Shown: one piece after another, positions 3,001-36,302 of the stretch
How positions within the stretch are numbered: position 1 is the first letter of the stretch
Layout of the letters: every line of letters begins with the position of its first letter
Assembly (NCBI GenBank): GCA_045837725.1
Contig: JBEWZL010000145.1
Coordinates: 1 to 64,000, forward strand
Direction of reading: 5' to 3'
From: Vermamoeba vermiformis
Lineage: Eukaryota
DNA: 64,000 nt
Notes under the pieces: model-generated
What the model was told of the DNA's origin: nothing
What the model saw: only the letters and a program-made list of their open reading frames with translations
Databases searched by the model: none
Position numbers and translations under genes: made by a program

Positions 3001-4727
3001 TCAATCAATTTTTTAAAATTAATGCGATGTTAAATAATAATGTATTAGAATTTATTTGAAGAGTTTCCACCAGAAATCAACTTTTGGATCGAATCATTTT
3101 TTGACAGAGAATGCCGTTTAAGAGCACGATTAATTTGCAAGAAGTGGTTTTAGCTATATAATACCTCAAATTTTGATATTTATTTGCCTGATGGCTCTCA
3201 AATAGACGATATCGTTGACACGTTCAGCAGATGTCAACAACCATTCAGTTTGAAGTTTCATAAAGCAGATAAACTCTCGCAGAAGGTCATGGGTACCCGC
3301 GATGTATTTAATAAGCTGACGAACCTCACTGGCCTTGAATTTTCAATGTTGAACAAGAAACGATTGGAATCATTGTTGGTTTTAAACTTTTCGCCGGATC
3401 TCCAACGCGTTGAAGGACCTTTATCGATCAAATTCTCCCACTCATTAGTAGCAACATCGTTAACTCGCTTGGACGTTAGTTCAATGCTCGCCGACAAAGC
3501 AAAGGATTGGCCCAAATTGCCAAATTTGGAATTCTACGCTGGACGTGGCTTTGCTAAAATTCCAATATTTGAACAGACGCCCAAACTTACAACATTAATA
3601 ATACGACGTACTGACGTCGATTGGCTGGTGCAACAAAAATTGAACAAATTGAAGAATCTTAAAGTTTTGAAGATCTGCGAAAACTGCTCGCTAGTACACG
3701 ATATTTTTTTAAAATTGCCTAATTTGGAAGATGTCGAAGTAATGGCTCCTCAGTCGAGATCTGTTGAGTGTAACAGTACAAGACTGACACGATTAAAGAC
3801 GAAGATTTTGTTTCAAGGATTCACCAAACATTCAACAACGCTCAAGTCATTGACAGTACAACCTGGAAAACTTGGTCGCACGAATGACAATGATTTGATC
3901 GGATTAAAAGAATTTCCGCATTTAGAAGAATTTTGTTTAAATGGGCAAGAAGAAGAGCAACAGAATATTGAAGTCACCATAAAAATTTTCCAATTCATGA
4001 ACCCAAAAACGCTCACAAAGTTGTCAGTAGACCTAAAATCGAAAGAAATTGAAATTTCATCGTTCACGAACCTCCGCGAGCTCAATTTAGCGCTACGTCA
4101 ATCAATCATTGAAATGGCGGTTTTATCAAATTTATCAAACTTGACCAAACTATCGATTGGAGGCATCAAAACACCTGAACTGGATTGGCTAAATAGACTA
4201 ACGAACCTACGAGCACTATACTTGGACTTCAAATCATTACATAACTCCAACGAAGTGCCACTGGATCTTGCGGAATTGACCAACTTGCGAACACTTGTCA
4301 TCACACCACGAACCAACAAAGTCATCCATTCGCTCACCAAACTGACGAAACTGGAGAGACTTGAGTTCCCAATAACAAATGAAGACATTTTTCACGACCA
4401 ATGGCTTGCATTGACTTCATTATCTTTCCGTCAAGCCACAGACAACGAAAAAGTTTCAAAGTTGACACGACTGCGAGAGTTAAATTGCATTGTGATTACA
4501 AATGACGAGATAGTACAGCTCACGAGTATGCAGAAACTGACGAGATTCATTTGCAGAAGCACCACAGCGAACTCGATGTTTTTGACACATTTGACATCTT
4601 TGCAGTCCGTTGCGTTCTCGAGCAATGTATCACCCGCTGACTGGGCCACGGTGCAGCCTTGGTCTTATTACAACGCTTACCCTGATGTCATCAGAAAACT
4701 TCCGAATTTTATCGAAGGACCAAAAGA
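1..4727. repeat. Left arm of large inverted duplication (runs off the left window edge)
   Basis: Position 1 (caatacattcacaacttgtc) is the reverse complement of 39359-39378. ORF translations 72/480/1504/1930/2360/3184 are near-identical to 39069/38529/37612/36901/36618/34525. Similarity ends at ggaccaaaaga (~4727). Confidence 0.95.
168..2701 (+). CDS. Inter-alpha-trypsin inhibitor heavy chain-like VIT-vWA protein with signal peptide and GPI-type C-terminus (copy 1, intron 1/exon 2 junction damaged)
   Basis: Signal peptide MMDNKASVVSLL, VIT segment (SRFATTTL...AFITYF...KSEAEQIYE), YFVHFFSP, MIDAS IIDTSGSM, GSTNINQAL, FLTDG, YQFVTPFTSMIVV and a hydrophobic tail. About 12 GT-AG introns. Confidence 0.85.
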
Positions 4728-4767
4728 TCATGCTAACACGCTGCCCTTGTATGCATTATATGATTGA
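2981..4767 (+). pseudogene. F-box + LRR protein, copy 1, with in-frame TAG at 3151-3153
   Basis: Exon 2981-2995, intron 2996-3048, then NLFEEFPPEINFWIESFF...RARLICKKWF* in frame with the 527-aa LRR ORF. The paralog has CAG at this codon. Confidence 0.8.
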
Positions 4768-4805: not shown

Positions 4806-6703
4806 TTACAATCCCATTGGATAGGTCTCGGGCTCGTTAACATTAACGACGCTACGTGCGTCGAGTGGCTCAAGAGCTGAAGTTTCATCGATGTGAATGA
4901 CGCAGTCAAACTGTTGCGATATTTTGCAATTGAAATAATGGCTGTATCTCTCTGTATCGGGCTTATAAATCACCCCAATAGCTCGTTCTAGTTTGTTTTT
5001 GCCTAGCTCATTAACTGCAAAAGAGCGAATCAGTGACACTTCGAAATGACACTTTGACACTTTGACACTTACCAAGTTCTTTGTCGATTTTAATGTTTCC
5101 TGAGGGATTGGTTCTGAACAAAAGCATAAACTCTTTTTTGCCGACGCTGTGGAATAGTTCTTCGTAACTTCCAGGCATTCCTTTGTTCACTTGCATTGTG
5201 CGCACATCGCCGTCCCATTCGTCCGCAGCCGAGACCGTGCCTATTTGAAATCTCAGTTAATACTAGTCTCTATATTCAGTAGATATCATTAATATGATCG
5301 TACCTGTGTACGTCGTAAAACCAATGTTGAATGTATTTTCTTTGCCCCATTTTTCACGCACCAGTTGGCCAATATTAATTTCTTTGTCTATAGCACCAAT
5401 AAAGTTAGAACCCATCGGTTATTATTGTAGCCAACACCTATTATAAATTTTATAATACTTACTCTTTGCAGCGTCCGTGGCGCTTGCATCGCCCAAGTGC
5501 GAGTTGTGTGCCCACACGACTGCTTTGGCGACAGATCCGCCAACTTCTTGTTTGCTCGTTTCAATGAAATCCATAATCTCTTTTAGTGTCTCGACCATAT
5601 GTGAGTCTCGCATGTTCCAAGTGTCTGAAGAAAGAAATGCAAGGTTAGATCTGATCGCGCAACCACATCTACAAGTTTCAGACTTACTTCCTGAAAACAT
5701 GCACCTATAATATTCCTCTGCGTTCTTAACGACCTTTGCATTAATTTCGGCTGCAAATAAATCTTCTCCTTCGCGCAGAGATTCTTGTTGCGTGGCTGAT
5801 TTTTTGTTCATTTCTGAGAGTTCTCTTGTTACTTCGATTTCCCGATCTTTATCGAATCCAAAATTAGTGGCGTAGCCGTACGCTTGCGCGTCTGATTTAT
5901 ATCGATCGAAAAATGCATAGCGTTCCCTGGCCCGAGAATAAGCAACCGGATCCTTGTCTTTCAAATATCGAAGGACCTTAAAACGAAGAATTAGCCATAT
6001 AGTGATATTATAATAATTTTTTTAAATAACAAGAAGCAAATTCAGAAAAGAACGCGTGGAGTGACACTTGGATGTACTCCGAGAAAATTGAAAATTTTTA
6101 GACTTACCGCCTGCGCTGATTCGTAAAATGAATATAAATCGAGCCCGTAGAACCCGACTTTCATAGTTTGATCCGTTTGTTTATCGTTCCATTCCTTCAG
6201 CCACTTAATAAAATCAAGCATGACTTTGTTCCGCCACATCCAGCGTGGAAACCTATCAGCATTAAAACCTAGTTATACAGCTGTTTATATTACCTTTCAA
6301 AGCGACTGAACGCTTGGTCGAGAGTTGGCGCTCCCTTGCCTCGGACAAATCTGGTAAAAGTCAGATTCAATTTCATGAGTTAATGATTAAACATTACTAA
6401 TAGGGACTTACTTGTTTATTTCAAATGCATCGGGCCAATCAGCCTCTGCTGCGATAAAGGTCACACCTTTTTCGATAATTAATTTTTTGGTGATCTCGCA
6501 TCTTTCTCGATAAAACTCGTGTGTTCCGTGCGATGCCTCTCCTACAGTAATTGATATAAGAATATGGCATCTTAAATTATTATTATCCTACCTATTAACA
6601 CGACCTTGGCAGTGCCTATAGCTCTTAAGATGCTCGTGTAATCTTTGGCAGGAAGTGCGGATCTGCTGATCAAATCTACCAAATTTTGACTCTTTGAAGT
6701 CAT
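4806..6703 (-). CDS. Erythromycin esterase (Ere/TIKI-superfamily) family protein
   Basis: Spliced motifs IGEASHGTHEFYRER, AEADWPDA, FPRWMWRN, FYGLDLYS, WNMRDSHM, WAHNSHLGDA, ERAIGVIYKPDTERYSHYF and ETYPMGL*. Confidence 0.9.
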
Positions 6704-13956: not shown

Positions 13957-14243
13957 CGTTGTTGCTTGTATGTAATTGAAAAGTTAAATGAGTCAGTTGT
14001 TCGCACATTCAAAAAAACCACAAATTTTTGTATCTCGCGTGCAATCTCCCGAGCAATTACGCGACCTTTTATTTAATTGTGCCTCACAATTTAAATGACC
14101 TACTATCAGAGCCATCCTAGGCACGAACTACGTTCCCGACGGTCTGCCCAGCTAGCCATAGAAATTGCGCAGTTTCGAAACTAGAGCTAACTACAATTTA
14201 TTAATTAACAATGGCAACTGAGCCCAACGCCTAACATGCGTGC

Positions 14244-15878
14244 TTAAAGGCTAGCAGGAGTACTCAAATAGTCTTGGATAGCTTGAGTGAAGCTGGCCTT
14301 CAAACTGCTGGGAACCACGTCGACAATGGATTGCAGCTGTACATTCAAGTACACAGGTGCGGCTATTTTTAAAAATCGTTAGTAATATTTTCATATCATA
14401 ACATGACATAGCCTCATCAATTAAAAATTTTGAAACATAAATCCGGATTAGTGAACGGTACACACGCGTGTTTGTCACTAAAATCGCTTAATGCAGGGTA
14501 CTTACAAGGAATCGAAGCGTCCCAATCGCGCCAGTTCTCAGGAGTGTACTTGGAGAACAGACCGCCCTTGAGCTCCAAGTAAGTCTCGCTCTCTTGCATC
14601 AAACCGGTGTTGAGTTGTTGCTTGTACTCCTCTCTCATCTTCTCGAAAGTAATGCCAACGGCTTGGTGAATAGCTCTCTTCATGGTAGGGTCCGAGATCT
14701 CAATTTGCTTGTAGAGAGTAGCGTCAATCTTGTTCTTAGGCTTGTTGAGGATCGTGTTGGGTTGCACGTTCGTCGTTGGATCTTGCGAAGGGGCAGGACC
14801 TTCAGTGAAGGGCTTGTTTGAGGGAGGAGTAGTCTCAAACTTGAACTTAATGCCGAATTGCTTGGCCAAAGTCTCAGCATTCAAGTCTTGGAAGTTGGTC
14901 ACGTTCACGAACGAGCGCATGCGCAATGAACCTCCGAGATCCGCTTGAGCAACGTAGTAAGTACCGAAGTACTTGAAGAATTGGAAGTACTGTGCTTGAG
15001 TGGTGTTCGAGTAGAAAGGCAAACGAGCAATTGAAGCAGCTGCAACGGGTGAGAGATCCAACAAAGCGGGTGGATGCAATTGCACGTTGAAGAAGATGTG
15101 AGTTTGATCAATAATGTTCAATCGCATCTCTGAGTGGCTCAATCGATCGCTTTAAATACAAGGTACGTTAGTTGAAGACTCCGACACTAAGGAAAAATCG
15201 AGCGAAAAATTTTCTCGCTAGTACCCCGAAATTAAGGCTAAATAATGGTATGATTCGATAATAAGCTCTATATGAGTACTATTGGCCGTTAAAATTCGGG
15301 TAAAAAATGTGATCTTGTTGCAGATTCTAAAAATGTCATTCACGACTTACGCGATCAAATGGTACTCTTTACTGTTGGTATATGACGCGATGTCTCCGAA
15401 AGAAAGTGATACATTGTGTTTGTGAGCCTTATCTTCTCTGTACTCCTCCGTTGTGTTGTAGAGCTGCCGTCGCATCCAATATTAGCAATGATGATATTTT
15501 TGACGTTCAGAAAATCAATTTTGCATTATGCCAATAATTATGTATAACATTATGTTGATTTAATTAGGCATATTATGAGAATTTTAAATGGTTACTTACG
15601 GTATTGGTTGTGGTGTTGAAGACATTAGGAGTTTTAATTGTTTGGACTCCGTCAGGAATTGAATAAGTTCTATTATCATACGGTGATGTAATAGTATCTC
15701 CGCTGTATGTCAATTTAATAACGCATAATGCAGGTTTGTCATTCACGGTGTCATAACCTAAGCCGATCAAATCCATGCCGGGCAAGGGCGCGGGTAAATT
15801 GCCATAGATTTCATAGCATGGAGGTACGGCAATAGCGCCAATGATGAATGCAACTAATACAGTTAATAGGGCCTTCAT
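14244..15878 (-). CDS. Secreted single-domain MACPF/perforin-like protein (MACPF-A)
   Basis: Signal peptide MKALLTVLVAFIIGAIA, LPGMDLIGLGYD, signature FFKYFGTYYVAQADLGG, KGG...W..SI, and last exon ending AIQDYLSTPASL*. Confidence 0.9.
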
Positions 15879-16012
15879 CGTGTTCTTGCGTGTCAACGAA
15901 TTGATGGAAATAATTATAAGGAACATTCCAACGCCATTGCAGTATCTCATTTTAGACTTAAATAGTCAACCACCGGTCTTTGTAGGTGACCTTTATTTGA
16001 CTATAAACCGAA

Positions 16013-19000
16013 ATGGCGTCCTCGTCGTTTCTGGTGGTGCTGATCTCGCTCGGGCTATTATTGCTTTCTGCCAATAGCTTTATCGAAAGCAAGTCAACCA
16101 AGGTCCGTAAAATAACCAATTGTTACGATAAATATTCATTAATTACGTAAACAATAGCCGGGTACTTTTTGGCAAGAGTTTGATCAGCTTTATGGAAACA
16201 AAATAGACTCAGTAATTGACGAAAAAATCAACCTGATATCAAACAGGCATGAATATAGCGGATAGAAGAATTTGTATAATTTTCTAACGGTGATTATTAC
16301 TCAGGCGGATTTTACGTCATGACATCCAAAATCAAATATCAAGCAACGAAAATGTTGACGATAAGTCAAATGATATTCCTGGGCTAGATATCATGGGCCG
16401 AGGATTTAATTTTGTCAAAGGCGAAAGCTCCATCCCGTTGTTCCAATGGAAGAGAAACGTAAGTAACGCGATCTGATCTTTTCTTATGGCTCGTATGTCT
16501 CATACTTCGGTGGTTAGCATCACTCTAAGTATCACTCTCCGTACACCAAGCACACATATGACGTTCCTGACGAGGTTTTTGTCGTCAACACGCCTGAACT
16601 GAGTGGTCGTGAAGAGGCCGGAGTATTTTCATACGTTGAAGACTATCAAACTCATTTGGCCAATCAATACGGCGTGAATGCCTCGTACAGCCGCTATGGT
16701 TTTGGCTTGACTGAAGACGTCAAGGTCCTCAGAGACGTGATGACTTCAGTGAGCAGAACTTACGGCGCTATGGAACGTGTCTACGTCTTGAACACGATGT
16801 CGTTGTTGCCTTTGCAATACTTGACGGTAGATCCGCAAGTCACGCGCTTGTTGAACCTGTTGCCTCGATTCGATGTGACGACCAAGCACGCCTATTACAA
16901 CCTGTTCGAGCAAGTTGGCACGCACTTCATTCACAACGCGGCCTTTGGTGGCTCAATGCAGCTGCAACAAGTCTTCGAGACCAAGAGATTCAGAAACTTC
17001 ACTGAGACTAGCGTGTTGGACTTGCTCAGTCTCAAGTTCGACTTCTTGAGCTTGCACGGCATTGTGCTCAGAAATCAAACTTGGCAAGAGTTGGTCGATG
17101 ACAATGTCACGACTACCTTCAACATCACCAACTTCAAAGGAGGGGATCCTTCGGTGGCATTCACATTCAATCAATACAAGGTACCAACGATATTATATTT
17201 CTCGGAGAAATGTCTTCCTAATTTGTGTTAAAGGAATGGGCCGAGACATTGAAGTTCTTCCCAGTCCCTGTTCGCTACAGATTGGTCGAGATCTCGGAGC
17301 TCGTTACGGACCTCGCTCTGAAGGCCGACATTAAGAAGGCGATCGCAACTTACGCAGCGGATTTGTTGGCCACGGAAGCTAGTAAGTTCTAATGCTTAGC
17401 AAGCTGCACTAGTCGTACTAATGGTTCGTTCTAGCGTTCAAGTTTGGACCTGCAACCAACTATGCAGATCCGGAACTGGGAGCCCAAGTGTTCGGCACAT
17501 CGAGTGTCAATCACGATTGCTACACAACAGAAACGTGTGGTCGTTGCTGGTTGTTCTGGACTTGCTGCAAGAACACTACTAGCTGCGTCCCTCGCAACAA
17601 CCAACCGAACCTCATCGCTGACGAGGGAATGGGCGGCGACTTCACTTTCAACGATAACGTAAGAAAAATTATAGCCCTGATCGATGTTGAACTAATCGGA
17701 TGCGTTTTAGGATCTGGATCAAACTGTCGTGCTTGATCTTGGCTCTGTTCGACGAGTGCTGCATGTTGAAGCGGATGTTACTCATGCTGGTCGTATCAAT
17801 GAAGTTTGGGACTTTATTGAAGTGTTTACTTCCAACGACAACTACATCTGGCAACCATTCGGCATAAAAGGCAAGAGAGACGGTATTCCTGACATCCTGG
17901 AGGAAGAGAACTACATTGCTCGATCATTGCCCGTTTCTGCTCAATTTATCAAGGTAAGCGATACCAGAAACACCTACAGCTGGTGGATGCAGGATGCAGT
18001 TTTCTTGCTTTCTTGTGGAAGTAGTGACCCGAACACGATGTTGCAAAACGTCTCGGGCACGACCACACTAACAAGAATGCACCGCTTCCCGTCCGATCAG
18101 CGAAGTTAAGCTTGTTCAGGCCTTCTTAGTACTGGGGTAGGAGACTACCTGGGAATCGGAGGTGTTGTGCTCTTTACTTTTTTGCTTTTATTTTTCTTAT
18201 CCTCCCGTGTAGTCTAGCCCTAATATTTGAAAAATTGAACTAATCCTCTTTGAGATCCCGCGTTAACTTTTTTATTGTAGATCAACTTCGGTCCTTGTTC
18301 GATCCACAACGGCTTTGGTTCGACCGTTCGTCGCATTCGCGTGTTAGGAGTAGAGACAAGCCAGCCTGTTGGTCATCTTGAGACTATTACTGACGGTCAA
18401 AATGGTGCAGTAGTCGGATGGGCTTTTGATCCTCTCGATCTGAGCAGCTCTGCTACCATCGAGGTCTATGTCAATGGCAAGCTTCGTACTACTGGCAGAA
18501 CATCTTTGCCTCGCCCTGACATTGCTGGCCACTTCGATCTCGCTTCAGATGCGCGTATTGGTTTCAACATCCCGTTGACACTTGACGCATCCATTAACGT
18601 GCACCAGATCTACGTCAAGTTCATTGGCGTTGGCGGTGGTTCTTTGACAACCAACACTTTGCAAAAGCTGCTTGCACCTCCCGCTGGCAAATTGCTCAGT
18701 GTCACGCCAACAAGGTACGTCATGCCAATGCTTCATATTCCGTTCCTGTTACTAATTCTTTTTAACAGCGTGACTGGTTGGGCTTTTGATGTTGCAAATC
18801 CATCCCAATCCGTCTCCGTGGACATCTTTGTCAATGGTGTAAAGCACATCTCAGTCATGACAACTGAGACTGACGATAAGCTCAATCAACTCTTCAATAT
18901 TGAAGGTGCGCACGTCTTCAAGGCCGACTTGAGCGCATTGAGTCCTGGCATTCACACTGTTACTGCTCGTGCTAACATCAACGGGGAACAACGAACACTC

Positions 19001-20472
19001 GCCAATTCATTGACACTCGACTTGCGGTAAGTACTGAGCAGAGGCACGCAATAACTTCGATGGTTCTAATCATCTGTCATAGTCCACCTCTCGGCAAGAT
19101 TGAGACATTGACCGAGAAGTCCGTTAGCGGTTGGGCAATTGATCCGTCAGTCCCTTCAAGCCAGTCAAAAGTGCAATTATTCATTAACAACCAGTTCGTG
19201 GCTGAGCAACAGACTTCGATTCTTCGTCAAGACGTCAACCAATTCTACAGCACTAATGGAGCTCATGGCTTTGACATTTCATTTGATATTCAATTGGACA
19301 CTTCTTATGAAGTCGTAAGTCGTAGCACATTTTGTCATTGAATCGCAGATACTAATGTGCTATTTAAGGCTATCTACATTCTACTCGGAGATGGTCACCT
19401 GGCTCTCGTCGATTCCGAAAAGGTGTTCGTTGATTCGCCCGCCAACCGTGACACGAGCATTCTCGGTCCTATTGGCATCGGTTTTGACGTTGTCTACGAA
19501 GAGTTCAGACTGCCAGTGGTAGCTTTGACTTACTCCAATGGAGTTACTGTTGATTTGAGTGCCTTATTGAACAACACTGAGTACGCTTTCGTGCCGGAAC
19601 CCGATCAAGTTGAACTCCACGTCAACCTTGGCAACCTTTTGAACGATACTAGCGCGATCTACAATACCACCAAGGATTACATTAACAAGCACGCCGAGGC
19701 TGTTGGTAAGTATAAGCTTATACCGACCGAAAAGTAGGAATGCTAACGGAGATTATTAGGTGCCAAAGAGTGGTTGTACGTCGGAATTTTCCAAGTCAGC
19801 GACACAACACGCAATATTGCCAGTCTTTTTGACAATGCCTACACTGTTGTAGCGTCTTATGAGCGTTCTGTCACCTTGTTCAACGTGCTCTTGTTGCCTC
19901 CTCCTTTGTTGAGTAAGTACTGCATTAGTTTATCCAGATCCAAATCGTTACTAATGATTTTATCAAATTAAGGCTTTGACACGTTTGCCAAGGGACTGGT
20001 TAACTCTTTGCCTGCGTATACAAACGAGACCGAGGCTCAATACCGCGACGTGATTCAACAACTGGGCACGCACTATTTGTCGCGCATGACACTTGGTGGC
20101 AAAGTCTCTAGTTTGACAGCCATTGATACGACCAAGATGAACATCTCCAATGAAGACGAGTTGACGCAACAAGTTTGCATGGCGTTCAATTACCGCTTGT
20201 CCGCTGCTGGATCCATAGCTAAGGCGAAATACGAAGAGTCGTTGACGAGCGAGTTCATTGATGGCTCCAAGTCTACTTTCAGATACGTCGGAGGTCATCC
20301 CGAGATGTATCGATTGGATGAGTCCGAGGAATGGGCTGCGACTGTTATCGATAACCCTGTTGTTATTGAATATCAGTTGGAGCTGATCAGCAGTTTAGTG
20401 ACGGATGCAATCAAGCGCCGAGATCTTGAGCAAGCTATCGTAGATTATATTAGAGATGCTAGTAGTATGTAA
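16013..20472 (+). CDS. Large secreted protein with two MACPF domains, a Cys-rich/discoidin-like domain and three GWA.D repeats (MACPF-B)
   Basis: Exons from 16305 splice in frame to the stop at 20472: IPGLDIMGRGFN...VGTHFIHNAAFGG (MACPF 1), VLDLGS...IEVFTSND..W...AQFIK, three copies of P.G.....V.GWA.D......V.vfvN, then IGIGFD...LGTHYLSRMTLGG (MACPF 2). The join of the first (signal peptide) exon is less certain. Confidence 0.85.
18055..18173 (+). rRNA. 5S rRNA gene nested in an intron of MACPF-B
   Basis: 119 nt. The 5' GGGCACGAC pairs with the 3' GTTGTGCTC. Contains the eukaryotic 5S motifs CCCGTCCGATC, GAAGTTAAGC (box A), TTAGTACT, GGAGAC (box C) and CCTGGGAAT, followed by T runs. Confidence 0.95.
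18173..18204 (+). terminator. Pol III oligo-T terminators after the 5S gene
   Basis: TTT, then T6 (18178-18183), T4 and T5 runs directly downstream of the 5S 3' end. Confidence 0.75.
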
Positions 20473-28472: not shown

Positions 28473-30289
28473 ATGCAATATAATTTAATAGTAAGCGCTT
28501 GCCTTCTCGCTTCTTTATTCCTGTTCGGATCCGTCCAAGCAGGTGCACCGATATGGATTTCTCCAACCAACGTTAATTACAGTAAGTAATATTAATATTG
28601 ACATACAGCGTATTTTCGGGACTCAAATTTAATATCAGTTTTCGCATCTTGACTGATCCGTTCGCAGCTTATCCATCGGACTATTTTGAAAGATACGCGG
28701 CCGGTAAAGGTGTTTGGGCTACTATCGATGTCGGCGCAGGTTCTCGCGGTGCAGCACCAAGCGTTCTCATGGACACGAAGGGCATTCTCTGGATCTTGTT
28801 CGGTGCTCAACGGCGCGACGGCTCAACAGCCTATGATCTGTTTAATGTATGGAACTACAACCCCAAAACCGACCAGTATCGCTATGTCTGGGGAAGCAGT
28901 GCGACAGGAGCAACAGGAGTAAATCCGCGCAATCCTGGAGATCTCCGAGTTCCAAGTGTTACGAATCACCCTGGAAATATTCGCAACGGAGGAGCTACTA
29001 TTGATAACAACGACAATATCTGGCTCACTACTTGGCGCGTCAACGGAGAGCTGTGGATGTTCAACACTTCATCGTGGGTCTTTACGCGCATGTTCGGACT
29101 CGACGGTGTAAACGACGTGCCGAGTCTAGGCGCTAATCCTGGTCAGCCCGGAGAAGACGTCTGGCCTGGCAAAGTACAAGGCCCGTGCTTGCTTAGTGAC
29201 TCGCAGAACAACCTCTGGATGCTTGGTGGTGCTGGATCCGACGGACCCCCAAACAACGCTGTTTGGCACTTCAATACGACTTCATACTTATGGACGTACA
29301 TTTACGGCAGTGTTACGGCACAGTCTATCACTCACAACGCGACATTCTACGGTGGCGTGTGGCTGGGGGGTTGTTTCATGGACGACAACGATCGTGTCTG
29401 GTTGTTCGGTGGCTACGGCCAATCCGCCAAAAGCTCAGGCAGTTACGCGAGCATTTGGACATTCGACACACGTAGCAAGCGACAGTACGAACTGGAGTAC
29501 GGCCCCAACACGTTGGACATCACGCCTCAAGTCGTGTCAGAAGATTTTCATGCGGACAATCATCCCGGTGGTTGTCAAGGCTCGCTGCTCGTTGATCGAA
29601 AGGACGGCACGCTATTGGTCGTTGCAGGCTACGGCAAAAATGCAATCGGATATTGGGGTGGAACTGACCTCGTATGGCTGTACAGCAAGCCTCTGAAGCA
29701 ATGGAGGCTTCATAGTGGAAATCTCAGCGCTTCTGAAAGCCCTGGTTCATTCACCCACTATCGCGAACCTGGATCGGAATTTCCTGGCACTGCTTTCTTT
29801 GGTCGCAGCGATGGCAAAAATATGAACGGCGATGTCTATATTGTTGGTGGTGGAAACAATTTGTACTACGAGCTTAGCCGCAAAGACATTTGGTTCATTT
29901 CGATGGATCAATGTTCCTCATCCACATCCAACAATTGCGATCCGAACGCTAACTGCATCGAAGAGATGTTTGGATACTCATGTGCCTGTAAAGAAGGATA
30001 TTCAGGCGATGGCTACACGTGCACTGCTGGTCCTAGTGTGATTTCTCCCTCGCCCAGTACATCTCCAGTCGGATCCATTCCTTCAGGATCTCCTCCTTCC
30101 GGATCCACTCCTTCGTGGTATACTCCCTCAGGATCTACGCCCTTATCAAATCCTATTGCACCGATTATGTCTCCTGCAGTACTGGCACCCGTTGCATTGA
30201 TTACGTCTCCTGGAGTAGAGAAAACAAGTATTGCCTCGTTAATGACTTGGTCGTTAGTTGTATTCGTAGTACTTGCATGCCTTATTTAG
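28473..30289 (+). CDS. Secreted kelch/galactose-oxidase-like beta-propeller + EGF + S/P stalk + GPI-type tail
   Basis: Signal exon from 28473, repeated D..n.lWlfGG.G...vW.f..W motifs, CDPNANCIEE..YSCACKEGYSGDG, GSTPS repeats and a hydrophobic end. Confidence 0.85.
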
Positions 30290-32335: not shown

Positions 32336-34109
32336 CTAATCATCCATGACATCGCCAAACTCCAAGAGACCAGATCCCGCATCTGGATAACTATATTTGG
32401 CATAGGCCTTACGTAATCTCCCGCGCAAACGGGGCAAACAGTTGTTGGGCGGGTTTTGGATCCAGGGATGGTTCAGCGCATCCGCGACTCTGATCCGCTC
32501 TTCAGGCTCATAGACATACATCTTCAGCACCAAGTCCTTGAGCTCCGCAGAGTAGTCGTCGTACTCGTCCTGTGTGCCCTCGTGCGTTTCATCGTCTACA
32601 GGGAACACAACGCCTTCGCGCATGATGGCCATGTACGCTTTGATCGGAGCCAGATCCGGATACGGATTGATGCCGAGCAGAAAATAGTATAGAAATGCGC
32701 CTATAAATAGACCAGTCATTAGTAACAAATCAAGGTTAGTCTGAAAAGAATATCGTATGACAAAAAATCGTTGATAGATTAGCTTGCCTATGTTCCAGAT
32801 ATTGGCTGCTTCAGCACGAGCAGGTTGGTCAATGAGATTGCAATTCTCGAGTGTTCTTAACGGATTGCCACGAGGGAACGACCGACGCACCACGCTGTGG
32901 CCATAGTCGAACAGTTTGAACTCGATCTGTGTCACAGTAGCAATGTCAATTTAAGAATTCATGAAGAAATATTCGTTCATGAACGGTTGGTTCAATGAAC
33001 GAAAAAATAAAGTATTACCAAATAAGGCAATTTCAACTGGTACGTACCCAATCACCCTTCGCATCGTAGATCATATTCGGTGGATCCAAAAATAGATTCA
33101 ATCCGTGCTCGCTCAGATATTTCACGCCTTGTAACATGTCTTTGACTAATCTCGCGATTTTTTTCTCCGTAAATTCTCCGCTGCTGGCACTTAAGATATA
33201 CTGCCACGCGCTGTTCTCGACGATAGACTCGTGCAAAGTATACATTATATCATCGCGCCGGAACTGCCGTACGGGCATGATGACGTTTGGATGCGGATCG
33301 ATCGTTCTGCGGAGGCGGTTCCAATAATTTTCCATATTTGGGTTGTTCTCGTCTCCAAAAATTTCATCGTCCTTATCAATGTACGAGTGCGTAAACAGCA
33401 CCGTCAGTCCATTGCTTTTCTGATCCAAAAATTAATTTGTTTTTCGCTTTAAAGTTATCTCGATTGGTATAAGGCGGTATAATCCTATTAAATTGTATCA
33501 AATTCAATCTTATGAAAATGTCTATCGAATTTAATTCTGTCACGAGGAAATTTCGTGGGGTGGAACGTAAAAACGTACTTGTATTTTAAAGGTCATATTC
33601 ATCACTGATGGAAGGTGCACCGTCAAATGCGGTATATTCGGCACGTTATTACTCGCATTTTCTTCTTTATAAATTCTGCGAAGTTGTTCGAACGAAGTGA
33701 TAAAGTACGCTCCACCACGCTCTAAAAATAGCTTGAGATAATCCGCTAGGGTTAAAATTAATCAGTACATATAGTAGTAGTAAATAAGCATAATAATATA
33801 GTTCTATCGTCAGAAATTTGCTGGCAATTTATGATAATTTTTTCGGCAGATGCGATCTCGTTACAAAATTTAAATTAGTATCAAATAGTCTATTAACCTA
33901 CTTATATCATGCAGGGGATATGTAGGCCAATATTGTGCGCATTTCTTCTTCCAGAGTCTTTGGCTCGTTAATAATTGTCGCCATTTTTTACAAACAATTT
34001 GAAATCTAATTAATTTCGGTTATAATAATTCTTAAAATATTATTCAGTATTACCTTACGCAATATTCGACCGGTAAGTGTTCGAAAATTACTGAATAAAT
34101 GTCCTCCAT
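32336..34109 (-). CDS. F-box + degenerate CAMK-like kinase domain (pseudokinase, possibly disabled)
   Basis: MEDIYSVIFEHLP..|..VCKKWRQLLTSQRLWKKKC at the 5' end. Kinase remnants HPNVI, MLQGVKYL, KLFDYG, NIWNIG, LLGINPY and ERIRVADALNHPWI. The middle exons could not be joined cleanly. Confidence 0.6.
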
Positions 34110-34524: not shown

Positions 34525-36302
34525 TCAAAACAATACGTCAGCGTCGTCGTCTTTTGGTCCAGCGATAAAATTCGGAAGTTTTCTGATGACATCAGGGTAA
34601 GCGTTGTAATAAGACCAAGGCTGCGCTGTGCCCCATTCTGCAAGCGATATCTTGTTCGAGAACGCAACGGACTGCAAAGATGTCAAATGTGTCAAAAACA
34701 TCGAGTTCGCTGTGGTGCTTCTGCAAATGAATCTCGTCAGTTTCTGTAGACTCGTGAGCTGTGCTATCTCGTCATTTGTAATCACAATGCAATCTAGTTC
34801 TCGCAATCGTGTCAACTTCGAGATGTGTTCAGTGCCAACTGCTTGACGGAAAGATAACGAAGTCAATGCAAGCCATTGGTCGTGAAAAATGTCTTCATTC
34901 GTGATCGGAAACTCAAGCCTCTCCAGTTTCGAAAGTTTGTTGAGCGAATGGATGACTTTGTTGGTTCGTGGTGTGATGACAAGTGTTCGCAAGTTGGTCA
35001 TCTCCACGAGATCCAGCGGCACCTCGTTGGAGTTATGTAATGATTTGAAGTCCAAGTATAGTGCTCGTAGGTTCGTTAGTCTATTAATCCAATCTAGCTC
35101 AGGTGTTTTGATGCCTCCAATCGATAGTTTGGTCAACTTTGATAAATTTGATAAAACGGCCATGTCCGTGATTGATTGACGTAGCACTAAATTGAGCTCG
35201 CGGAGGTTCGTGAACGATGAAATTTCGTCAATTTCTTTCGATTTTAGGTCTACTGACAACTTTGTGAGCGTTTTTGGGTTCATGAATTGGAAAAATTTTC
35301 CGGTGACTTCGATATTCTGTTGCTCTTCTTCTTGGCCATTTAAACAAAATTCTTCTAATTGAGGGAATTCTTTTAATCCGATCAAATCGTTGTCATTCGT
35401 GCGATCAAGTTTTCCAGGTTGTATTGTCAATGACTTGAGCGTTGTATGTTTGGAGAATCCTTGAACCAAAATCTTCGTCTTTAATCGTGTCAGTCTTGTA
35501 CTGTTACAATAAGCAGGTCGCATTTTAGGAGCCATTACATCGAACTCTTCCAGATTAGGCGAGTCTAAATCGAGATCGTGCACGAACGAGCAGGGTTCGC
35601 AGATCTTCAAAACTTTCAAGTTGGTCAATTTGTTCAATCTTTGTTGCACCAACCAATCGACGTCAGTACGCCGTATAATTAATGTTGTAAGTTTGGGTGT
35701 TTCTTCAAATATTGGAATTTTAGAGAAGCCACGTCCAGCGTAGAATTCCAAATTTGGTAATTTCGGCCAATCCTTAGCTTTGTCGGCGATCATTGACCTA
35801 ACGTCCAATCGAGTCAACGATGTTGCCATTAATGAGTCGGAGAATTTGATCGATAAAAGCCCTTCAACGCGTTGGAGATCCGATCCGGCTGAAAAGTTTA
35901 AAACCAACAATGATTCCAATCGTTTCTTGTTCAACATTGAAAATTCAAGGCCAGTGAGGTTCGTGAGCTTATTAAATACATCGCGGGTACCCATGACCTT
36001 CTGCGAGAGTTTATCTGCTTTATGAAACTTCAAACTGAACGGATGTTGACATCTGCTGAACGTGTCAACGATATTGTCTATTTGAGAGCCATCAGGCAAA
36101 TAAATATCAAAATTTGAGGTATTGTATAGCTGAAACCATTTCTTGCAAATTAATCGTGCTCTTAAACGGCATTCTCTGTCAAAAAATGATTCGATCCAAA
36201 AGTTGATTTCTGGTGGAAACTCTTCAAATAAATTCTAATACATTATTATTTAACATCGCATTAATTTTAAAAAATTGATTGACTTACGCGACTGCTTTCC
36301 AT
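34525..36302 (-). CDS. F-box + LRR protein, copy 2 (intact)
   Basis: Same two-exon structure as copy 1 but open through KKWFQLYN into the 524-aa LRR ORF. Confidence 0.88.

Follow-up and report, generated by a model that had tools for sequence, protein, structure and literature searches.

A head-to-head gene pair with three diverged MACPF domains in a Vermamoeba-like amoeba, a candidate two-component pore-forming system

In Bacteroidota, according to the part of PMC11169675 on which we draw, CDCL toxins are encoded by adjacent genes, one for a short subunit of ~365 amino acids (aa) without a binding domain and one for a long subunit of ~500 aa that has such a domain, and the short and long types lie on separate branches of the tree. 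One long subunit recruits ~30 short ones, as C5b-8 recruits C9, and the same part of the paper states that this complement-like route, by which an initiator recruits many further subunits, had before CDCL been described only for the mammalian membrane attack complex (MAC) (PMC11169675). Here we report a locus with a related layout in a 64,000-nucleotide (nt) stretch of amoebal DNA (contig JBEWZL010000145.1, positions 1 to 64,000; hereafter the window). Two genes, here called A and B, lie head to head at 14244-20472 and encode MACPF-fold proteins with signal-peptide-like N-termini. The protein of A is a bare MACPF protein, and that of B has an N-terminal and a C-terminal MACPF domain (B-N and B-C) with further modules between them. 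As far as the cited part describes it, the CDCL-S / CDCL-L system of Bacteroidota appears to be the closest working analogue of this pair. That A and B form a mixed pore in the manner of complement or CDCL is our tentative first choice, a little short of an even bet. The two-component basis of this reading is partly supported, by the adjacency of the genes, the kinship of their domains, the asymmetry between a bare and a targeted protein and a weak complex prediction. The features of the locus are as follows.

14244..15878, - strand: gene A, a secreted-type single-MACPF protein of 384 aa (coding sequence from 15878 to 14244, stop codon 14246-14244)
15878-15600, 15463-15351, 15149-14506 and 14362-14244, - strand: the four exons of gene A, an open frame with no internal stop
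15879..16012, no strand: divergent intergenic spacer, 134 base pairs (bp) between the ATGs, from the sequence
16013..20472, + strand: gene B, a secreted-type protein of 1174 aa in 13 exons, an open frame with no internal stop
16013-16102, 16158-16246, 16305-16458, 16518-17180, 17234-17381, 17435-17658 and 17711-17953, + strand: exons 1-7 of gene B
18281-18714, 18769-19026, 19083-19314, 19369-19705, 19760-19912 and 19973-20472, + strand: exons 8-13 of gene B
16305..17381, + strand: B-N, about residues 80-385, exons 3-5 (Pfam in exons 4 and 5, motif, predicted fold)
17435..19314, + strand: middle part of B, exons 6-10, introns excluded (Pfam matches below cut-off, predicted model, database matches)
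19369..20472, + strand: B-C, about residues 865-1174, exons 11-13 (Pfam in the last exon, motif, phmmer)

The DNA at 14244-20472 is eukaryotic with short introns, and a plain listing of its open reading frames (ORFs) gave fragments only. The models of A and B were obtained by reading the sequence together with a stepwise splice search, and a script joined the exons by coordinates. The introns of gene A (136, 201 and 143 nt) are all GT-AG. Those of gene B comprise eleven of 52-60 nt and one of 327 nt, with GT-AG ends in 11 cases and GC-AG ends in one. The GC-AG intron is intron 2 (16247-16304, 58 nt), the other 14 introns of the two genes being GT-AG, and support for it comes from a spliced contig that ends at 16248 as well as from a V. 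vermiformis transcript protein. Given its GT-AG introns and spliced RNA, we rejected the idea that the locus is prokaryotic. The original prediction, made from the letters of the sequence, had placed the two start codons at 15878 and 16013, ~135 bp apart in divergent orientation, and this was exact, the ATGs being separated by 134 bp. It had also called both genes signal-peptide genes, and both N-termini are indeed hydrophobic and signal-peptide-like, as read from the sequence rather than by a predictor. From the layout, the spacer is presumed to be a shared or overlapping promoter region. RNA depth is near 0 in the bin 15933-16169, and the gene A mRNA contig stops at 15889. Searching with tblastn, we found no further MACPF copy elsewhere in the 64-kb window.

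Word-indexed protein searches with exon 3 of A (801 candidates) and exon 4 of B (1026 candidates) matched two proteins each, P0001 (385 aa) and P0002 (389 aa) for A and P0014 (1172 aa) and P0015 (1100 aa) for B. Both P0001 and P0014 bear EukProt Trinity transcript names, and the accession of P0001 is that of Vermamoeba vermiformis (EP00029); we take P0014 to come from the same V. vermiformis transcriptome. Orthologues of A and B occur in this transcriptome and among metagenome-derived proteins. The gene A model is 91.9% identical (353/384) to the transcript ORF P0001, and the gene B model is 88.4% identical (1035/1171) to the complete transcript ORF P0014 and 83% identical to P0015. Given the identities to P0001 and P0014, the strain of the window is Vermamoeba-like and differs from the transcriptome strain.

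Reads were mapped from two raw-read RNA runs (X21 and X23), a contig run of spliced RNA (X4) and one water-metagenome DNA run. All three junctions of gene A were recovered in RNA reads, and one spliced contig of 1194 nt spans 14216-15889. For gene B, eight junctions consistent with the model were present in reads or spliced contigs, and removal of the 327-nt intron was seen in 3 reads of X21, 10 reads of X23 and one contig. Thus, A and B are real, spliced, expressed genes. Most of the X21 reads (741 of 885) were under 95% alike to the window, indicating that the RNA comes from a diverged strain. Transcript depth over exon 3 of A was ~60 versus 10 over the nine 3' bins of B in X21, and ~168 versus 25 in X23, so that A is ~6 times deeper than B in both runs. 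The depths of both genes rise ~2.4-2.8-fold from X21 to X23, a comparison of two samples of a diverged strain with unrecorded conditions and without a normalising gene. Spliced contigs of both genes were also present in X4, where the A contig has a depth of 26.6 and the listed B contigs have depths of 4.85-16.3.

Scans of metagenome contigs matched 594 pattern stretches for orthologues of gene A and 246 for orthologues of gene B, none of which was confirmed. Both B peptide patterns cross exon junctions, which we take as the reason why they fail to match genomic DNA. The DNA metagenome contigs at the locus (250-700 nt) are too short, and none of those listed bridges the spacer.

The assignment of the three domains to MACPF was made by profile, motif and fold. 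Using the Pfam MACPF model (PF01823, cut-off 21.5 bits), four of the 12 exon translations scanned scored above the cut-off, namely exon 3 of A (44.4 bits) and exons 4, 5 and 13 of B (36.3, 23.5 and 77.7 bits). Among the orthologues, P0001 has one such stretch (69.2 bits, 7.3e-19) and P0014 has two (146.6 bits, 1.5e-42). Pairwise identity is 21% between A and B-N, 27% between A and B-C, and 23% between B-N and B-C. These counts and identities bear out the original prediction of one bare MACPF protein next to one with two MACPF domains, all three diverged from each other.

The MACPF signature stretch is [YW]-G-[TS]-H-[FY]-x6-G-G. The corresponding stretch is VGTHFIHNAAFGG in B-N, LGTHYLSRMTLGG in B-C and FGTYYVSQADLGG in A, where Y replaces the H of the consensus and the fit is partial. 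The GG-containing stretch is kept in all three domains. Each domain has two helical clusters at the membrane-hairpin positions, 42-46 aa long except for the second cluster of A, which has 104 aa, and the strongest amphipathic beta stretch among the three domains is in A. The tip of the second cluster of A holds a segment of ~33 aa that is rich in Pro, Thr and Asn and has low model confidence (P0001 residues 236-299, ~14560-14830, - strand). This segment shows indel differences between strains (P0001 versus P0002), and next to it lies the beta stretch with the strongest amphipathic character in the protein.

Sequence searches of the PDB led from A to C9 and perforin, and from B to perforin, TgPLP1, Mpf2Ba1 and C6; the phmmer match of B to perforin-1 (2.8e-07) falls in B-C. 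A profile of five B-type proteins matched MACPF chains only among the PDB sequences. One PDB match of 1120 aa, 9xda, is Plasmodium PLP2 (named from the search listing) and has one matched MACPF stretch. The AlphaFold model of A, built from a 16-sequence alignment (pLDDT 71.3, pTM 0.67), has 70 PDB matches at E<=0.001. These include perforin (3nsj, E 9.9e-16, TMq 0.61), MPEG1 (6u2l, 1.8e-12), TgPLP1 (5own, 8.8e-13) and PlyB (4oej). The full-length model of B, built from a 21-sequence alignment (pLDDT 77.2, pTM 0.69), matches Mpf2Ba1 (8b6v, 1.6e-13), TgPLP1 (5own, 1.7e-13), perforin and C6, and B-N folds as MACPF within it. The predicted models of A and B have the bent central sheet and the two helical clusters (TMH1 and TMH2) of the MACPF fold. 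Structure prediction, which had been set as a test of the domain calls, thus returned this fold for both proteins (3nsj, 8b6v and 5own among the matches).

To place the three domains in a wider family, we searched 1.84 billion representative proteins with P0014 using phmmer. The search gave 1921 matches at E<=0.001, 18 of them at E<=1e-30, and the best 150 were examined. MACPF is carried by 36 of the best 150, and 19 of these have two domains of >=220 aa in one chain. The 19 tandem proteins (P0016, P0017, P0018, P0021, P0030, P0034-36, P0044, P0051, P0055, P0070, P0075, P0083, P0097, P0114, P0139, P0144 and P0157) vary in size from ~650 aa, in compact forms with the domains back to back, to ~1260 aa, in forms that have inserted modules, and one of them, P0035, has an ML lipid-binding domain. 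Pfam applied to 16 top matches found two MACPF stretches in 12 and none in 4. The top three relatives, P0016-18 (1217-1262 aa, from Logan contigs), have the architecture of B throughout, with an identity of 28% by the search and 26-27% by the alignment, and B, P0015 and P0016-18 can be aligned over their whole lengths. An additional C-terminal discoidin domain is present in P0018 (31.4 bits); the match in P0017 (20.7 bits) is below the 28.2-bit cut-off, and P0016 aligns over the same tail without a Pfam match there. V. vermiformis itself has paralogues of both kinds, the tandem MACPF protein P0030 (893 aa) and the A-type protein P0178 (385 aa), and the tandem protein P0097 is from the stramenopile Cantina marsupialis.

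We constructed a tree from 60 domain rows, comprising the 3 query domains (from P0001 and P0014) and 57 domains of relatives, with domains of <220 aa dropped. A single clade of 14 rows unites the three domain types (A, B-N and B-C), with an UFBoot value of 87, an SH-aLRT value of 94 and presence in 88% of 200 bootstrap trees. Within this clade, the A-type single domains (4 rows, 100/99) and the B-C-type domains (5 rows, 99/97) form subgroups, as do the 5 B-N-type rows (SH-aLRT 87, quick tree). The N-type and C-type groups each hold across proteins that are only 26-27% identical to B. Support for the 14-row clade is moderate, not decisive, and the branching order among its three groups is unsettled. 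As judged from this tree, the three domain types are sister lineages of long standing within a single protist subfamily, which split from each other before B and P0016-18 diverged. Two complete MACPF domains per chain, with the N- and C-types kept in relatives, thus characterize a grouping that is made here and is not a curated family. Literature searches, limited to one library of papers, returned no description of the single-chain double-MACPF architecture, which domain databases may list without comment; judged by title and abstract, the papers listed for paired MACPF domains deal with complement C8 and CD59. The searches also returned nothing on Vermamoeba together with MACPF or perforin, nor, by title and abstract, on amoebal MACPF proteins. 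Viral contigs gave 46 pattern matches to the B-type alignment, and not one of them was confirmed.

The middle part of B consists of a Cys-rich, discoidin-like beta-sandwich (exons 6-7 and the start of exon 8) followed by three Ig-like repeats of ~95 aa each (exons 8, 9 and 10, into exon 11). Matches of B to F5_F8_type_C (E 0.0018 and 0.00059, 18.9-20.4 bits) are below the 28.2-bit Pfam cut-off. The repeats resemble bacterial Ig-like domains, and their match to Big_7 (20.7 bits, E 0.00069) is below the cut-off of 24.1. In the model this part is all-beta, with pLDDT mostly 75-93, and its fold matches are ectodomains of the Ig/FN3 type. The internal repeat is also shown by tblastn. The other 114 of the 150 best P0014 matches cover the middle part only, and include an "Ig-like domain-containing protein" of Phycisphaerales and a pectate lyase with a Por secretion tail. 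The profile of five B-type proteins found no solved relative of the middle modules among PDB sequences, and the best ESM Atlas score with the middle part was 0.76 (a bacterial cluster), below the level of a lead. The binding-type modules that had been proposed for B are real as folded domains, in that they are predicted to be all-beta and have F5_F8_type_C and Big_7 matches below the cut-off, and on sequence grounds "binding-type modules" appears to be a fair description. Neither a transmembrane anchor nor another signalling domain was found by Pfam in the orthologues of A and B.

Among the two proteins, modules of a targeting type occur only in B. In architecture alone, the locus therefore presents a targeted and an untargeted MACPF protein as separate, linked genes. 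This part of the original prediction, namely an A without a targeting domain and a B with targeting-type modules, both expressed, agrees with the Pfam results and the RNA runs. If A and B work together, they would act like the complement MAC or the two-/three-component CDCL toxins of Bacteroidota. B would go to the phagosome or the medium and bind a target surface, most plausibly that of prey bacteria, via its beta-sandwich and Ig-like modules. There its pair of joined MACPF domains would nucleate a ring, and the more abundant, untargeted A would add on, extending or completing a beta-barrel pore. What such a pore attacks, where it acts and how many copies of each subunit it holds are all our inference.

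A complex prediction of A with B, suggested along with the original prediction, gave weak support. With A as the partner of B-N plus B-C the score was 0.48, versus 0.00 for the best of three controls. The mark used for such predictions is reached by 51 of 78 solved complexes and by 2 of 108 mismatched pairs, and scores of <=0.60 include 5 of the 78 solved complexes and all 4 of the mismatches (of 180) that passed. Contact agreement between runs was >=72% and the pLDDT of the partner was >=71. Exchanging B-C, with B-N left in place, brought the score down to 0.00, a hint that A is in contact with B-C in the model. The prediction was made independently of our own alignments. Adjacency, kinship (87/94), the bare-versus-targeted asymmetry, the six-fold greater depth of A and the score of 0.48 speak for the proposed roles of B as a receptor-binding primer and A as a polymerising subunit of one pore, which stay hypothetical.

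Several observations weigh against a mixed pore. Passes in the range of 0.48 are wrong in the majority of cases, except for guesses that were already likely, and since MACPF-MACPF assemblies (MAC and poly-C9) have been solved, a pass may reflect memory. A pass also does not say which family member binds, and V. vermiformis offers other candidate partners, namely the tandem protein P0030 and one or more additional A-type paralogues (P0178). The predicted complex is the one source of an A-B contact, and lends it weak support. Forms that lack a targeting module are common in the family, both as bare MACPF proteins (300-320 aa) and as compact tandem ones (~650 aa), and thus the case that A needs a targeting partner is weaker. 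The joint rise of A and B comes from two samples without a normalising gene. Finally, other genes flank the pair within a few hundred bases on either side, so a short divergent spacer is unremarkable here.

These points fit a quite different history, in which A and B are independent paralogues that arose by inverted local duplication. Each protein would then make its own homo-oligomeric pore, with B using its domains in cis, possibly at different sites or on different targets, and adjacency and shared expression would be by-products of a compact genome. We regard this as a serious possibility, clearly below even. The 21-27% identity among the domains implies an old duplication, with time for separate functions. 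The family has many and diverse members (36 of the 150 best matches with MACPF, 19 of them tandem, with P0178 and P0030 in V. vermiformis), and its bare and tandem forms without targeting modules may act alone. Transcript depths of A and B are about six-fold apart, and the complex prediction is weak. However, A has no recognisable targeting domain and its neighbor B has four such modules, and the nearest kin of the A-type domains, ahead of the other 46 sampled, are the B-type domains. Moreover, in the best-studied cases in which short and long MACPF/CDC paralogues are neighbors, they work jointly, as the cited part of that study describes (PMC11169675).

A non-lytic role for one or both proteins, in adhesion, signalling, encystment or membrane remodelling, strikes us as improbable. 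On this account B, with its Ig-like and lectin-like modules, would belong chiefly to the cell surface or the extracellular matrix. Non-lytic MACPF proteins are known (astrotactins, BRINPs and Torso-like), and astrotactin-2 is among the fold matches here. A has Y in place of the motif H, and its Pro-rich insert of ~33 aa is of low confidence and indel-variable between strains. Against this, all three domains keep the GG motif and both helical clusters at a length that fits membrane hairpins, Pfam found no transmembrane anchor or other signalling domain, and pore formers that act in the lumen would clearly be useful to a phagotrophic amoeba. That the feature is unreal, as a chance match, an assembly artefact or a pair of pseudogenes, we consider virtually impossible. 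The frames are complete and open over 17 exons, spliced RNA is present in three runs, orthologues share 83-92% identity and Pfam E values reach 1.5e-42; pseudogenes are ruled out by the intact, conserved frames.

The mixed pore of A and B could be carried further, to an amoebal membrane attack complex. In this fuller form, B would be a joined C8alpha/beta-like pair that nucleates the C9-like A, and pores built from the three domain types would kill ingested or neighboring bacteria. B would then represent a wider, undescribed class of protist proteins, found in Amoebozoa and in one stramenopile or more, with gene fusion having built heteromeric assembly into the chain. We think this unlikely, though not far-fetched. 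If it were true, A would be the bare, more abundant C9-like subunit, and B would be aimed by its lectin-like and Ig-like modules.

Within the only long intron of gene B, intron 7 (17954-18280, 327 nt), there is a gene of another kind in the same orientation.

18055..18173, + strand: 5S rRNA gene (Rfam RF00001, 104.7 bits, E 6.6e-22, model positions 1-120 of 120)

The match is full length and above the RF00001 gathering score of 38 bits, and a T-run follows the 5S. The intron that contains it is still spliced out in RNA (3 and 10 reads and one contig). DNA metagenome depth is 254 over the 5S and ~4 nearby, with loose ends at 18019 and 18182 where agreement is low. The excess depth and the diverging read ends indicate many copies elsewhere, and this one looks like a copy of a dispersed unit of ~164 nt that includes ~36 nt upstream of the 5S start. 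The nested 5S is not part of the MACPF system.

The ORFs around the pair appear to be ordinary amoebal gene content, and Pfam on the window ORFs recognised no immunity-type or protease gene beside A and B. An ORF fragment at 5422-5964 (- strand) matches the erythromycin esterase family (PF05139, E 2.6e-27), in intron-bearing amoebal DNA; this family is best known from bacteria. A 318-aa ORF at 62679-63635 (- strand) matches DUF7869 (E 3.4e-39) and may belong to a mobile element. The long ORFs at 3184-4767 (+), 34525-36099 (-), 28598-30289 (+), 32336-32935 (-) and 59975-60517 (-) have leucine-rich-repeat, Kelch, protein-kinase and RhoGAP matches, and only EGF and RhoGAP pass the Pfam cut-offs.

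If A and B do form a mixed pore, this would be a third independent complement-like case, after the MAC and, on the account in the cited part of the CDCL study, CDCL, and it would be found in a protist that is a professional phagocyte. It would also inform the question of how duplication, fusion and division of labor give rise to heteromeric pores. The single-chain double-MACPF proteins (19 of the 150 best matches) offer a natural "pre-joined dimer" for studying how MACPF rings start. In the environment, Vermamoeba commonly hosts intracellular bacteria and giant viruses, and thus lumenal pore formers are relevant to the killing or escape of prey and parasites. If A and B act separately, they are an ordinary paralogue pair in an expanded family.

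Compared with the known systems, the A/B pair shares with CDCL, as far as the cited part of that work goes, the linkage of the two genes, a bare A of 384 aa and a B that carries the modules. The CDCL proteins differ in being bacterial lipoproteins of the CDC branch, encoded in co-oriented operons and activated by proteolysis, whereas A and B are eukaryotic, divergently transcribed and of the MACPF branch, and the long partner has two pore domains. Neither an immunity gene nor an activation site was identified for the pair. With the complement MAC (C6, C7, C8alpha/beta and C9) the pair shares the presence of several diverged MACPF paralogues, and complement proteins are among its sequence and fold matches. 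The MAC has a heteromeric nucleus of two different MACPF domains (C8alpha/C8beta), followed by C9 polymerisation, and the two domains of B recall C8alpha/C8beta. Unlike in the MAC, the two nucleus-type domains would be on one polypeptide, that of B, the pair is not known to have a C5b-like platform, and hetero-assembly here would be hypothetical. The modules of B, a discoidin-like sandwich and Ig-like repeats, also differ from the TSP, LDLRA and EGF modules of complement, and kinship with complement is at the superfamily level only (10-17% identity in fold matches).

In pleurotolysin (PlyA and PlyB) and other aegerolysin-MACPF pairs, a MACPF part without membrane binding of its own needs a separately encoded binding partner, and A matches PlyB in fold (4oej). 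In those pairs a small aegerolysin without MACPF does the binding, whereas the candidate partner here is a double MACPF protein. Perforin-2/MPEG1 and the apicomplexan perforin-like proteins, which are strong fold matches, are single-gene MACPF effectors, of phagocytes or of protists, with a C-terminal beta-rich targeting domain. They have one MACPF domain per chain and form homo-oligomers, and literature searches returned no tandem form of them, in contrast to the two MACPF domains on the single chain of B.

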